From IMG/VR virus record IMGVR_UViG_3300023487_000050, positions 1-6,407 of that record: DNA of 6,407 bases. One strand, written 5' to 3'. The DNA is from a virus. Under the pieces are notes generated by a model. It made no database searches. It was not told where the DNA came from and saw nothing but the letters and a program-made list of their open reading frames with translations. A program made the position numbers and the translations under genes. Positions 1 through 6,407 of the stretch are shown piece by piece. Each line of letters opens with the position of its first letter. Position 1 is the stretch's first letter.

Positions 1-55
1 GAAATACAAAACCGGATTATAAATCCGTAACATGTGAATTTGATGTACAAAAAGA
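1..55. repeat. Terminal redundancy: 55-nt exact copy of 6353..6407, marking the closure point of a circular genome
   Basis: Base-by-base comparison shows 1..55 (gaaatacaaaaccgg...gtacaaaaaga) is identical to 6353..6407. An ORF runs in frame across the junction. Microviruses have circular ssDNA with no true terminal repeats, so this is most simply an assembly overlap (k-mer sized). Confidence 0.9.
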
Positions 56-3084: not shown

Positions 3085-3258
3085 ATGAAAAAGTATATTA
3101 TTTTTTACCGTTTGGCTTTTGGTTATGATAATGTTCGTGTTGATGCTGAATCTTTATCGGATGCTATCTCTATTGCTGATGCTTTTAGTTTTAAATCTGG
3201 CGCTACTATTGTCGGCGTATGTCCTGAGTTTTTATTAAATGGTTGGTATCATGAATAA
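3085..3258 (+). CDS. Hypothetical small protein, 57 aa (below the ORF-track length cutoff)
   Basis: Manual translation from ATG 3085 to TAA 3256-3258 gives MKKYIIFYRLAFGYDNVRVDAESLSDAISIADAFSFKSGATIVGVCPEFLLNGWYHE. It fills an otherwise empty gap, is on the same strand as all other genes, and overlaps the next start by 8 nt (ATGAATAA). It is the first ORF after the promoter-like box. Confidence 0.55.
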   Translation: MKKYIIFYRLAFGYDNVRVDAESLSDAISIADAFSFKSGATIVGVCPEFLLNGWYHE

Positions 3259-3431: not shown

Positions 3432-3596
3432 ATGTATAAAGGTGTTTTAAAATTCATTAAGAGAGAGACTCTCCATGAAGAATTTATAGTAAATATTGGT
3501 ATTTTTAACCGTCCTTCAACTGCCGAACGTTTTCGCAAGCAATTGCAGGATGCTAATATAGGTTACGATGTTTTACTAATTCTTGAGAAATTATGA
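3432..3596 (+). CDS. Hypothetical small protein, 54 aa
   Basis: Track ORF 3348..3596 starts at a TTG that overlaps the upstream gene by 83 nt. The ATG at 3432 lies 1 nt after the upstream stop and is preceded by the only clear SD-like AAGGAG in the genome (3416-3421). Protein: MYKGVLKFIKRETLHEEFIVNIGIFNRPSTAERFRKQLQDANIGYDVLLILEKL. Its TGA stop overlaps the next start (ATGA at 3593-3596). Confidence 0.55.
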   Translation: MYKGVLKFIKRETLHEEFIVNIGIFNRPSTAERFRKQLQDANIGYDVLLILEKL

Positions 3597-3790
3597 AAAT
3601 TACTCCTAGTCAGTGGATTAAGCTCGTGCAGCTGATTTCCACATTTATTATTGGTGTGATTACTGCCCTTACAGTACAATCTTGTACTGCGTCTATGTCT
3701 GTTTTTTGGAAAAATTCCAACTCAAAACAGGATTCTAAGCAAACTACTCAACAGCGAGTAGATTCTATAACTATTAAACCTCAATTTTAA
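3593..3790 (+). CDS. Small membrane or lipoprotein-like protein, 65 aa; candidate lysis or membrane-targeting factor
   Basis: It has an ATGA start/stop overlap with the upstream ORF, and its stop lies 3 nt before the VP1 ATG. Protein: MKITPSQWIKLVQLISTFIIGVITALTVQSCTASMSVFWKNSNSKQDSKQTTQQRVDSITIKPQF. There is one ~19-residue hydrophobic helix (aa ~11-29, nt ~3623-3679) ending in a partial lipobox (TVQS-C31), then a polar Ser/Gln/Lys tail. Confidence 0.6.
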   Translation: MKITPSQWIKLVQLISTFIIGVITALTVQSCTASMSVFWKNSNSKQDSKQTTQQRVDSITIKPQF

Positions 3791-3793
3791 AAA

Positions 3794-5992
3794 ATGGCAC
3801 AAAACATTTTTGACGCTACATTTGATGCGAATAATCGTATAGACGTAAATTCTTTTGATTGGTCTCATGTAAATAACTTGACTACTGATTTTGGTCGTAT
3901 TACTCCTGTATTTTGTGAGCTTGTTCCTGCCAAAGGGTCTCTTCGTATTAATCCCGAGTTTGGACTTGAATTGATGCCTATGGTATTCCCTGTTCAAACA
4001 CGTATGTTTGCTCGTTTGAACTTCTTTAAGGTTACTCTTCGTTCAATGTGGGAGGATTATTCTGATTTTATTTCGAATTTCCGTGATGACCTTGAAGAAC
4101 CTTATATTTTGCCTGACTCTTTTCGATTTGAGAAAATGTGTAAAACTGGTTCGTTAGGTGATTATTTAGGTCTACCTACTTTTGGAACTAAATCTTCAAA
4201 GGTTTATAATTTTGTTGATAATCCTTGTGCTGCTCGCTCACGCACCGTTTCATCCTCTGATTTAGATAAGGTTATGGCATCGGTTCGCTCTGGTCATGGC
4301 TTCCCTGATAGTCTCTGTGCTTCTACCTTTACTCCAGGTGTTTCGAAAATCGTTTCGTTCACTTCTACAAAGTCCTCTAATCCTATTGCGTCTGATATTA
4401 TTCAGATTGGAGTTGATATTACCATTTCTGGTGGTGATTCTGCAGCTTTTGACGGTGCACAAGGTTATTTTGTTTCTCTTTCTGAAGATAATAAATATCT
4501 TTTTGATGTGCCAATTACTTTAAAGTCTGAAAAAGGTGTTATTATGGCTCATATTAGTTCTGTTGAAGCATCTAAATTTGGCTCTTCTTATGGTATTCCG
4601 CTTGTTATTGTTAATCCTTCTAATATTACGGATGTTATTAGCTTTGATAATGTTAAGTTTTCTGTAGTTTACACAACTTATTCTTTACAGTCAGACGTAT
4701 CTTATCTTACTTATCCGTTTGCTACTGAATCTCGCCCGGATATTTCCCGTTTATTGGCTTATCGTTTCCGCACTTATGAGTCTGTATATAATGCGTATTA
4801 TCGTGATATCCGCAACAATCCATTTATAGTTAATGGTCGTCCGGTTTACAACAAGTGGTTGCCTACTATGAAAGGAGGTGCTGACACTACACTGTATGAG
4901 CTTCATCAGTGTAATTGGGAACGTGACTTTTTAACTACTTCTGTTCCGAATCCTCAACAGGGTGCGAACGCTCCTCTTGTTGGACTTACTGTTGGTGATG
5001 TTGTTACTCGTTCTGAGGATGGAACTTACTCTGTACAAAAACAAACTGTTCTTGTTGATGAGGATGGCTCTAAATACGGTGTATCTTATAAAGTGTCTGC
5101 AGATGGTGAACGCCTTGTCGGTGTTGATTATGACCCTGTTTCGGAAAAAACGCCTGTAACAGCTATCAATTCTTATGCTGAATTGGCTGCCCTTGCGACT
5201 GAACAAGGTTCAGGCTTTACAATTGAAACTCTCCGGTATGTTAATGCTTACCAAAAGTTTTTGGAACTTAACATGCGTAAAGGATTTTCCTACAAACAAA
5301 TTATGCAAGGTCGTTGGGATATTGATATTCGTTTTGACGAGTTGTTGATGCCTGAATTTATCGGAGGTATCTCTCGTGAATTGTCTATGCGTACCGTTGA
5401 ACAAACCGTTGATCAGCAAAATGAAAACTCTCAAGGCCAATATGCTGAAGCTCTTGGCTCAAAAACTGGTATTGCTGGTGTTTATGGCTCTACACCTAAT
5501 AATATTGAGGTTTTCTGCGATGAAGAATCTTATATTATTGGTTTGTTAACTGTAACTCCTGTACCTATTTACACGCAATTAATGCCTAAGGATTTTATAT
5601 ACAACGGTTTATTAGACCACTACCAGCCGGAATTTGACCGCATAGGATTTCAGCCTATTACGTATAAGGAAATTTGCCCAATGAATGTTGTTGCAAATGA
5701 CAGTGCTAATCAATTGAGTAGAACGTTTGGCTATCAGCGTCCATGGTATGAATATGTAGCTAAATATGATAATGCGCACGGTTTGTTCCGAACGAGTATG
5801 AAAAATTTTGTCATGTCTCGTGTGTTCTCTGGGCTTCCTCAACTCGGTCAGCAATTTTTACTTGTTGACCCTGATACGGTTAACCAAGTATTCAGCGTTA
5901 CCGAGTACACGGATAAGATTTTCGGCTACGTGAAGTTTAACGCTACCGCTCGATTACCAATTAGTCGTGTTGCGATACCGCGATTAGATTAA
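3794..5992 (+). CDS. VP1: Major capsid protein VP1 (phiX174 F-protein family), 732 aa
   Basis: This is the largest ORF. Several microvirus F/VP1 signatures are visible in the translation: N-terminal FDWSHVNNLTTDFGRITPVFCELVPAKGSL, then GDYLGLP, then LAYRFRTYESVYNAYYRD, and TIETLRYVNAYQKFLELNMRKG. The large size fits Alpavirinae-like capsids. Confidence 0.95.
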   Translation: MAQNIFDATFDANNRIDVNSFDWSHVNNLTTDFGRITPVFCELVPAKGSLRINPEFGLELMPMVFPVQTRMFARLNFFKVTLRSMWEDYSDFISNFRDDLEEPYILPDSFRFEKMCKTGSLGDYLGLPTFGTKSSKVYNFVDNPCAARSRTVSSSDLDKVMASVRSGHGFPDSLCASTFTPGVSKIVSFTSTKSSNPIASDIIQIGVDITISGGDSAAFDGAQGYFVSLSEDNKYLFDVPITLKSEKGVIMAHISSVEASKFGSSYGIPLVIVNPSNITDVISFDNVKFSVVYTTYSLQSDVSYLTYPFATESRPDISRLLAYRFRTYESVYNAYYRDIRNNPFIVNGRPVYNKWLPTMKGGADTTLYELHQCNWERDFLTTSVPNPQQGANAPLVGLTVGDVVTRSEDGTYSVQKQTVLVDEDGSKYGVSYKVSADGERLVGVDYDPVSEKTPVTAINSYAELAALATEQGSGFTIETLRYVNAYQKFLELNMRKGFSYKQIMQGRWDIDIRFDELLMPEFIGGISRELSMRTVEQTVDQQNENSQGQYAEALGSKTGIAGVYGSTPNNIEVFCDEESYIIGLLTVTPVPIYTQLMPKDFIYNGLLDHYQPEFDRIGFQPITYKEICPMNVVANDSANQLSRTFGYQRPWYEYVAKYDNAHGLFRTSMKNFVMSRVFSGLPQLGQQFLLVDPDTVNQVFSVTEYTDKIFGYVKFNATARLPISRVAIPRLD

Positions 5993-6345: not shown

Positions 6346-6407
6346 ATGGCTAGAAATACAAAACCGGATTATAAATCCGTAACATGTGAATTTGATGTAC
6401 AAAAAGA
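6346..6407 (+). CDS. 5' end of the junction-spanning 107-aa ORF (continues at position 1 once the 55-nt overlap is collapsed)
   Basis: ATG at 6346-6348 followed by GCT AGA AAT ACA AAA CCG GAT... (MARNTKPDYKSVTCEFDVQK). From 6353 onward the sequence duplicates 1..55 and is in frame with the ORF that ends at 317. Confidence 0.7.
   Translation, partial: MARNTKPDYKSVTCEFDVQK
6353..6407. repeat. Terminal redundancy: second copy of 1..55
   Basis: Exact 55/55 identity with 1..55. Confidence 0.9.

Follow-up and report, generated by a model that had tools for sequence, protein, structure and literature searches.

Non-phiX174 microviruses are among the most abundant viruses of the mammalian gut. The lysis protein E of phiX174, a SlyD-dependent inhibitor of MraY, is overprinted in gene D, is not a lipoprotein and acts by an uncleaved transmembrane helix, its C-terminal part being replaceable. 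In the colicin lysis proteins (bacteriocin-release proteins; Kil, Cel, Cal), the mature parts are rich in Ser, Thr, Gly and Gln and the signal peptides are unusually stable. Expression of the colicin lysis proteins alone is lethal or lytic, and their lipid modification is required (PMC2896534). The small phage lipoproteins Llp, Cor and Rtp45 exert their effect by attaching to an outer-membrane protein of the host (PMC9586334, PMC12685063). The exit of non-phiX174 microviruses from the cell and the immunity of carriers to reinfection are open questions (PMC7062461, PMC3394797). The locus described here is a 65-codon gene, called LPP (small lipoprotein precursor), in the IMG/VR virus record IMGVR_UViG_3300023487_000050. 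The analysed stretch of 6407 nt (the window) is a complete microvirus genome. LPP encodes a predicted lipoprotein with an invariant lipid-attachment cysteine and an invariant match to the O-glycosylation sequon of Bacteroidota, and it was never found together with an M15 peptidase gene. A role of LPP in host lysis is tentatively favoured.

LPP encodes a predicted lipoprotein precursor

The gene and its parts are all on the + strand:

3593-3790, +: LPP, small lipoprotein precursor, from ATG at 3593 to TAA at 3788-3790, 65 codons plus TAA; MKITPSQWIKLVQLISTFIIGVITALTVQSCTASMSVFWKNSNSKQDSKQTTQQRVDSITIKPQF
3593-3682, +: predicted type II signal peptide, residues 1-30, with n-region MKITPSQWIK (K2, K10), h-region L11-V28 and lipobox V28-Q29-S30 before C31
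3683-3685, +: TGT, Cys31, the predicted lipid-attachment residue and mature position +1
3683-3787, +: predicted mature 35-residue peptide CTASMSVFWKNSNSKQDSKQTTQQRVDSITIKPQF, rich in S, T, N and Q, with no further Cys and no acidic residue from +2 to +7
3761-3769, +: GAT TCT ATA, D57-S58-I59, a match to the Bacteroidota O-glycosylation sequon

The coordinates of the open reading frame (ORF), its 65-residue product and the positions of K2, K10 and C31 are those given by the initial annotation, made from the sequence alone. Residues 11-29 are hydrophobic, with a mean Kyte-Doolittle value of 1.9. AlphaFold2, run on a 28-sequence alignment, predicts a confident helix at about residues 5-30, with a predicted local distance difference test score (pLDDT) of 86-95, and gives a pLDDT below 55 for the tail.

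The PROSITE-type lipoprotein rule reads {DERK}6-[LIVMFWSTAG]2-[LIVMFYSTAGCQ]-[AGS]-C, with the Cys at 15-35 and K/R in the first 7 residues. LPP matches this rule in full and is the sole such match in the six frames of the window, any match being found in 6.7% of 300 Markov-simulated sequences. The initial annotation had correctly placed a lipobox at C31 but had called it partial; by this rule it is complete.

Cys31 is invariant, both in the 28 aligned members (28/28) and in all 27 representatives sharing less than 80% identity, and a Cys at position 29-33 is present in 87 of the 89 unique family proteins. The lipobox position -1 is occupied by Ser or Ala in 100% of the aligned family. Among the 89 unique proteins, the lipobox is VQSC in 75, IQSC in 6, VHSC in 3, CVSC in 2 and another form in 3 (forms include LQSC, VQAC and LDSC). 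A strict lipoprotein pattern is passed by 60 of the 89, and the failures are attributed, by inspection only, to a Cys at -4. Conservation within the signal part, measured on the 27 representatives, reaches 81% at T17, 89% at L26 and 93% at S30. Because Cys31 is invariant and position -1 is always Ser or Ala, the helix most probably serves as a lipoprotein signal peptide and is cleaved off. Cys31 would be lipidated and the signal removed, as far as can be read from these sequence features.

The mature tail carries a Bacteroidota O-glycosylation sequon

The predicted mature part is 35 residues long in 49 of the 89 unique proteins and 36-38 residues long in 38 more, and consists mostly of S, T, N, Q and K throughout the family. 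A second Cys is absent from it in 88 of 89; the exception is an 871-residue fused ORF, which is also outside the 35-38 length range. The most conserved columns of the 27 representatives are C31, Q50 and D57 (100%), followed by S36, N41 and S58 (96%) and by T32, S34 and Q46 (85%). The tail had initially been described as polar and unstructured. It is indeed polar and of low pLDDT, but it is not featureless, given the invariant Q50 and D57 and the nearly invariant S36, N41 and S58.

The general O-glycosylation sequon of Bacteroidota is D-(S/T)-(A/I/L/V/M/T); the modification takes place in the periplasm, concerns non-cytoplasmic proteins only, and usually modifies a site almost fully (PMC8550257, PMC12871550). 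In the LPP family, this sequon occurs exactly once and in the same alignment column in 105 of 105 unique members (DST 78, DSV 10, DSI 8, DSL 6, DSA 2 and DTL 1). The invariant sequon independently supports the export of the tail, regardless of what becomes of the helix. It further implies a phage protein built for glycosylation by its host, in which Ser58 would be the modified residue, and assigns the whole LPP family to phages of Bacteroidota.

Surface lipoproteins of Bacteroides carry an export signal (LES) after the Cys, CS(D/E)2, with the variants K-(D/E)2 and Q-A-(D/E)2 (PMC6222051, PMC5080379). The window tail starts with C-T-A-S-M-S-V, and none of the 89 unique proteins (0/89) has an acidic residue (D/E) from +2 to +7. 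A periplasm-facing location is predicted because this acidic signal is missing.

LPP is a conserved gene under strong constraint

A word-indexed search yielded 1003 homologous proteins at E<=0.01, nearly all on contigs of ~6.4 kb; the top 120 are 92-100% identical to LPP, and one JGI homologue had been automatically named 'lipoprotein'. An exhaustive HMMER scan of 1.84 billion representatives gave 34 clusters at 50% identity, essentially all of small proteins. By tblastn, the family was found in 54 GenBank microvirus genomes from the gut of lemur, rodent, tortoise, rat and human, in all of which it is either unannotated or a 'hypothetical protein'. All homologues lie in microvirus DNA, either in free contigs of genome size or in Bacteroides proviruses.

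Searches with LPP against Pfam, PHROGs, NCBIfam, PADLOC and PDB profiles gave no significant match. The NCBIfam 'smalltalk protein' model NF033879 (29 residues) has a sub-threshold match to residues 7-32 (E 0.027, 14.3 bits versus a cut-off of 24.7), which falls on the signal region and is probably compositional.

In nine IMG/VR relatives with VP1 69-82% identical and the upstream region available, LPP has 65 codons, stands in the same place and has its Cys at 31. The check on close relatives proposed in the initial annotation thus found LPP intact and in position, and neither absence nor disruption was seen. Among the close relatives, LPP is 89-95% identical, like the pilot protein VP2 and the replication initiator VP4 (89-95%). 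In comparison, the 57-residue ORF is only 33-67% identical, and the major capsid protein VP1, at 70-80%, is by far the most divergent large gene. The divergence of VP1 is consistent with hypervariable surface loops under diversifying pressure. Pairwise ratios of nonsynonymous to synonymous substitution rates (dN/dS) of LPP against close relatives are 0.06-0.25, with 0.18 for the signal part and 0.20 for the mature part. LPP is a real gene under strong constraint, and its product is the sole non-structural product of the genome with an export signal.

LPP and the M15 peptidase do not occur together

No muralytic domain (peptidase, amidase or other endolysin domain) was found in the window by the family-library searches. 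In the initial annotation, microviruses other than the phiX174 group were said to be without a recognised lysis gene. This goes too far, since several microvirus groups have M15 peptidases that are considered likely to act in lysis (PMC3394797, PMC9239249). An M15A peptidase is encoded by phiHBP1, the sole Bacteroides microvirus in culture (PMC13064476):

L027, 84-488: M15 peptidase of phiHBP1

This phage is without LPP. The Dulem viruses 245 and 232, which have LPP, share 38-39% VP1 identity with it over the full length. The microviral M15 proteins are 39-45% identical to annotated endolysins of Bacteroides phages with double-stranded DNA (B124-14, Barc2635 and the crAss-like cr4_1), a likeness that supports a role of M15 in lysis. 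Matches to the microviral M15 were found in 331 phage records, many of them microviruses. The M15 gene would be consistent with an endolysin captured by microviruses sharing the same hosts.

Two profiles, one of LPP and an iterated one of M15, were run against all six-frame ORFs of 175 pooled loci. They detected LPP in 110 loci and M15 in 38, with no locus carrying both. A second sample, collected through VP1 only, comprised 80 phiHBP1-like loci; among its full-length genomes, 35 carry M15, 18 carry LPP, 17 carry neither and 0 carry both. When VP1 was clustered at 70% identity, 18 clusters had LPP and 3 had M15, and none was mixed. LPP is present in each complete genome of all 18 LPP clusters. 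Since the members of LPP or M15 clusters with neither gene are all partial contigs, LPP is fixed within its clades. A close pair is formed by L158, which has M15, and L076, which has LPP. Their VP1 proteins are 54% identical and their gene order is the same, with the accessory gene located in the gap between VP2 and VP4, beside a similar-looking ORF of 57-63 residues. This distribution suggests that LPP and M15 are alternatives.

A 66-residue hydrophobic alternate-frame ORF was also noticed in L158, ending just 5' of M15:

L158, 2554-2754: hydrophobic alternate-frame ORF of 66 residues

It is a possible holin-like partner of the M15 peptidase, which has no signal of its own.

Genomic context, mobility and hosts

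A 55-bp direct repeat is found at both ends of the window (1-55 and 6353-6407), which therefore represents a circle of 6352 nt. Every gene is on the + strand, and the GC content is 37.7%. The closest GenBank records are gut microviruses of rat, wild rodents and tortoise. Scans for promoters and terminators, including the Bacteroides-type -33/-7 pattern, gave results at chance level. The other features of the genome are the following:

6346, across the junction, to 317, +: 107-residue ORF (MARNTKPDYKSV...), just 5' of VP2, the counterpart of a 107-residue 'hypothetical protein' annotated in relatives
314-1471, +: VP2, pilot protein
1637-2992, +: VP4, replication initiator
3085-3258, +: the first of three small ORFs after VP4, 57 residues
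3239-3430, +: the second small ORF
3432-3596, +: the third small ORF, 54 residues, cytoplasmic, a neighbour but not a conserved partner of LPP
3593-3596, +: ATGA start/stop overlap of LPP with the 54-residue ORF, also found in close relatives
3794-5992, +: VP1, major capsid gene, beginning 3 nt after the LPP stop

The coupling on both sides of LPP had been described initially and was found again, through the ATGA at 3593-3596 upstream and the VP1 ATG at 3794 downstream. The 54-residue upstream ORF is 81-94% identical in close relatives and absent from distant LPP-bearing genomes. No signal peptide was found in it. It has a sub-threshold Pfam match to the first half of the SPOR (peptidoglycan-binding) domain (E 0.012, 16.4 bits versus a cut-off of 21).

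Slot 3085-3258 is a second variable accessory site that is swapped among relatives. In L005, L008-L011 and L013, which are otherwise ~90-95% identical, it holds unrelated ORFs of 60-78 residues (33-67% identity or no match). A highly hydrophobic alternate-frame ORF of 39 residues (3119-3238) was considered as an E-like overprinted lysis gene and rejected, as it is missing where the host ORF has been replaced (L008-L010, L013). Other Leu-rich hydrophobic alternate-frame ORFs on the + strand lie within VP1 (4296-4523, 4536-4667 and 4962-5159). These Leu-rich frames look like an effect of codon composition.

The position of LPP changes between lineages: it adjoins VP1 in the window lineage and VP4 in others. 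In Dulem virus 245, it is located between VP2 and VP4; here LPP is 58% identical to that of the window, VP1 24% (partial alignment) and VP4 ~29% (short stretch). In Dulem virus 232, LPP lies immediately 5' of VP4 and is 40% identical, with VP1 at 21%. In Dulem virus 213, it lies two genes 5' of VP1 and is 33% identical, with VP1 at 28%. The gene orders of these viruses and of the window differ, and the ORF adjoining LPP is non-homologous in each; LPP therefore travels alone. The coupling to the capsid gene is real in the window lineage but is not a general feature, LPP being 5' of VP4 elsewhere, and the earlier argument that LPP is made late together with the capsid does not carry over to those lineages. 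The same pattern of exchange between lineages has been reported for microviral M15 peptidases (PMC9239249). LPP is an accessory, mobile gene of Bacteroides-infecting microviruses.

The hosts are confirmed for two LPP-bearing integrated proviruses in IMG/VR (L165 and L174/L172), whose flanking genes are identical to proteins of Bacteroides eggerthii and other Bacteroides:

L165, 1637-1831: LPP, the first phage gene after the host junction

The order in L165 and L174 is host gene, ~390 nt (in L165), LPP, VP4, VP1, scaffold, VP2 and host genes (in L174). A 24.3-kb ENA contig, L019, was set aside as prophage or host evidence, as it is probably an assembly chimera. A close relative is present in it as a tandem repeat (1.6 copies, 37% GC) and is fused to bacterial genes of 61% GC; the junction, near 10767, falls inside the 107-residue phage ORF, and the flanking proteins are nameless in the collection. 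A scan of genome collections with LPP gave just three small contigs of microvirus size binned in genomes, and no usable host evidence.

Proposed mechanism and alternative explanations

The LPP precursor would enter the inner membrane in a Sec-dependent manner through its N-terminal signal peptide, receive a lipid on Cys31 and then be cleaved by signal peptidase II. A 35-residue lipopeptide would remain tethered in the periplasm and, because the acidic export signal is missing, would not be flipped to the cell surface. Ser58 would be O-glycosylated by the general glycosylation system of the host. Taken jointly, Sec-dependent insertion, lipidation and cleavage at Cys31, a periplasm-facing location and O-glycosylation of Ser58 are predicted with good confidence. 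The peptide would then bind a conserved component of the host envelope via S36, N41, Q50, D57 and S58. Invariant polar residues in a short, probably unstructured peptide argue for the recognition of a specific host component, and since LPP is near-constant while the capsid changes, this putative target must be conserved among Bacteroides hosts. Host lysis would be the consequence, with LPP acting from the periplasmic side as a non-enzymatic single-gene effector. Its action would resemble that of the colicin lysis (bacteriocin-release) lipoproteins and not that of phiX174 E, and LPP would fill the role held in sister lineages by an acquired M15 endolysin-like peptidase.

That LPP is a non-enzymatic lysis effector is judged possible, short of probable. 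This reading is favoured because the genome has no other envelope-directed non-structural protein, because the distribution and the genomic slot of LPP are complementary to those of an endolysin-like gene, because genomes that have hardly any room to spare keep LPP as a fixed gene, and because small lipoproteins of similar size and composition, the colicin lysis proteins, are lytic (PMC2896534). The initial annotation had proposed LPP as the best candidate of the genome for an amurin-type lysis factor. As a candidate it remains reasonable, being a real, conserved and envelope-targeted gene, the source of the sole exported non-structural product in a genome that has no peptidase, and never accompanied by M15; the phiX174 E-type transmembrane model is not supported.

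Several points speak against lysis. Every step of the pathway is derived from sequence. The Gln at lipobox position -2 is atypical, although allowed, a signal peptide of 30 residues with an 18-residue h-region is atypical as well, and cleavage of the signal peptide is not certain. No single-gene lysis protein of a phage is known to be a lipoprotein, and the term is absent from two surveys of such proteins. Gokushoviruses lyse their hosts without any recognised lysis gene (PMC7062461), and the three characterised stand-alone small lipoproteins of phages that were found in the literature, Llp, Rtp45 and Cor, serve superinfection exclusion (PMC9586334, PMC12685063). Quasi-lysis of the colicin type would not obviously breach the peptidoglycan enough for virions of 25-30 nm. 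Members of the LPP family also reside in temperate proviruses; a gene with constitutive lethality would have to be silenced there. Regarding M15, the sample contains 2-3 independent lineages, so that its exclusivity with LPP is suggestive but not statistically firm and may be a matter of common descent. In five clades, the complete genomes lack both genes, and their phages are evidently releasable without LPP or M15. No convincing lipoprotein substitute was found in the genomes with neither gene; a small transmembrane ORF in the same slot was rejected, as its reading frame is not conserved across the clade.

The main rival, somewhat unlikely in our judgement, is a lipoprotein for superinfection exclusion or receptor masking; exclusion had been named as an alternative in the initial annotation. 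LPP would bind the periplasmic face of the receptor in the outer membrane, such as a TonB-dependent transporter of the SusC type, or some other machine of the envelope. The altered receptor would block adsorption or DNA delivery, so that lysogens and infected cells would be protected and losses of progeny to debris and vesicles would be avoided. Precedents are Llp with its target FhuA, Rtp45 with its target LptDE, and Cor, Rtp45 binding by beta-strand pairing (PMC9586334, PMC12685063). By inspection, the tail stretches SMSVFW and VDSITI of LPP alternate in polarity and could pair likewise, and the missing surface-export signal predicts the same periplasm-facing location as for Llp. The position of LPP as first gene after the host junction in Bacteroides proviruses would fit as well. 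Carriage of a gokushovirus gives superinfection immunity by an unknown mechanism (PMC7062461), and in B. fragilis, phase variation at susC/susD loci goes along with changes in susceptibility to phiHBP1 (PMC13064476). A receptor-specific blocker would, however, be expected to track the capsid, and LPP does not appear to do so: it is 89-95% identical where VP1, the receptor-binding capsid protein, is only 70-80% identical, and 40-58% identical across capsids that are 21-28% identical. Exclusion also gives no reason for the mutual exclusion with M15. The known exclusion lipoproteins are folded and of ~6 kDa, whereas the mature part of LPP has 35 residues and is predicted to be disordered. No sequence similarity was found to Llp, Cor, Rtp45 or any PDB chain; the best hit of the PDB-chain profile search, in which the FhuA-Llp and LptDE-Rtp45 entries are assumed to be included, was a glutaredoxin at E 0.84.

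The remaining explanations are less likely. LPP could have some other periplasmic role, modulating the host envelope in lysogens or countering an envelope-based defence, which we regard as quite unlikely. It behaves as an accessory, horizontally mobile and provirus-carried gene, and nothing ties it directly to a phenotype; however, a genome of ~6.3 kb has little room for non-essential cargo, LPP is fixed in 18 clades, and PADLOC and the other libraries give no hint of such a role. An uncleaved N-in/C-out single-pass protein with an active helix, either an E-like inhibitor of a cell-wall enzyme or a holin- or pinholin-like oligomer, is very unlikely, including a variant in which the cleaved, stable signal peptide is itself toxic. 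Stable toxic signal peptides have been reported for bacteriocin-release proteins. The hydrophobic stretch does have transmembrane length (18-19 residues) and shows more conservation than is usual in a signal peptide: the columns of residues 11-30 have a mean entropy of 1.43 versus 1.7 for 45-65, the dN/dS of the N-terminal half is 0.18, T17 (81%) and L26 (89%) are conserved, and a small-xxx-small pattern occurs at 21 and 25. The atypical Gln at -2 points in the same direction. The top conserved columns, however, belong to the lipobox and the tail (C31, Q50 and D57; S36, N41 and S58; S30), and the invariant sequon shows selection on the periplasmic part. LPP is not overprinted, and neither E nor any holin family resembles it in sequence. 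The phiX174 E-like transmembrane amurin of the initial annotation does not fit these same features, among them the invariant Cys31 and the constrained, sequon-bearing tail. A spanin component, an outer-membrane (o-) spanin or a unimolecular (u-) spanin finishing lysis at the outer membrane, is extremely improbable. A small lipoprotein gene with an ATGA overlap is superficially like the arrangement of Rz/Rz1. The upstream 54-residue ORF, however, has no conserved transmembrane domain, and in other LPP lineages the upstream neighbour is unrelated. A hydrophobic N-terminal extension of this ORF (from 3348/3354) is open in some relatives and closed by stops in 4 of 9 (L008, L009, L012 and L013), and is therefore seen as a by-product of the overlapping frame. 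LPP itself has no C-terminal transmembrane or hydrophobic segment and is thus not a u-spanin, 35 residues are too short to span the periplasm, and the genome has no endolysin or holin to work with. Lacking both an inner-membrane (i-) spanin partner and a C-terminal transmembrane domain, the spanin reading is effectively refuted.

Significance

LPP represents a widespread, previously unannotated family, with more than 1000 sequences and 54 GenBank genomes and no entry in Pfam, PHROG or NCBIfam. In many Bacteroides microviruses, no other accessory product is directed to the envelope. Searches of the literature turned up neither a lipoprotein of any microvirus nor a single-gene lysis protein of the lipoprotein type. 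The full proposal is that a microvirus lyses Bacteroides with a lipopeptide of 35 residues, to which the periplasmic machinery of the host attaches both the lipid and the O-glycan; it is considered unlikely. If true, LPP would be the first single-gene lysis protein of a phage to be a lipoprotein and the first phage effector in which a sequon for host glycosylation is the conserved feature, and it would indicate a new, conserved weakness of the Bacteroidota envelope that is accessible from the periplasm. As a lysis factor, it would identify a new target for antibacterials on the periplasmic side of Bacteroidota; as an exclusion factor, it would be a pointer to the receptor of Bacteroides microviruses. 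C31, S58 and D57 are concrete sites for point mutants with which either role could be tested directly. The invariant sequon also provides a simple sequence marker by which uncultured microviruses can be assigned to Bacteroidota hosts.

Comparison with known systems

LPP has no sequence membership in the E, colicin-lysis, Llp/Cor/Rtp45 or spanin families, and the defining features of E and of the spanins were looked for and are not those of LPP. With phiX174 E, it shares a small size, an N-terminal hydrophobic helix, its occurrence in a microvirus and its standing as candidate sole lysis gene in the absence of a muralytic enzyme. In contrast to E, LPP stands alone as an ORF, both its lipobox and the pattern of its periplasmic tail are invariant, and no sequence similarity between them was found in Pfam, PHROG or NCBIfam. 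The M15 genes of microviruses resemble LPP in their behaviour, both being exchanged accessory genes that occupy the variable gap beside VP4 and are fixed within clades. The M15 product is an enzyme without signal peptide, whereas LPP would yield a non-enzymatic lipopeptide of 35 residues.

The closest likeness of LPP is to the colicin lysis proteins, one of form and not of homology: a very small precursor, a lipoprotein signal, a mature part of ~28-35 residues and no enzymatic domain. No sequence similarity was detected, and there is no Pfam match at E<=0.1. The signal peptide has 30 residues in LPP versus 19 in the colicin lysis proteins, and only LPP has an invariant O-glycosylation sequon. 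The colicin lysis proteins are encoded on enterobacterial colicin plasmids, LPP by a virus of Bacteroidota. The colicin mechanism consists of the activation of outer-membrane phospholipase A, which may not release virions.

Llp of T5, Cor of the T1/phi80 group and Rtp45 of Rtp are small stand-alone phage lipoproteins for which a periplasm-facing position at the outer membrane is predicted or shown; LPP is likewise small and stand-alone, and is predicted to face the periplasm. The mature part of LPP is about half their size and predicted to be disordered. Unlike these systems, LPP does not appear to co-vary with the receptor-binding capsid and is mutually exclusive with an endolysin-like gene in the loci searched. 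LPP would be the first such small lipoprotein in a microvirus and in a phage of Bacteroidota. Its novelty is that a putative small effector lipoprotein, a type already known from phages and plasmids, is found here in a new virus family and a new host phylum, and with a glycosylation sequon.

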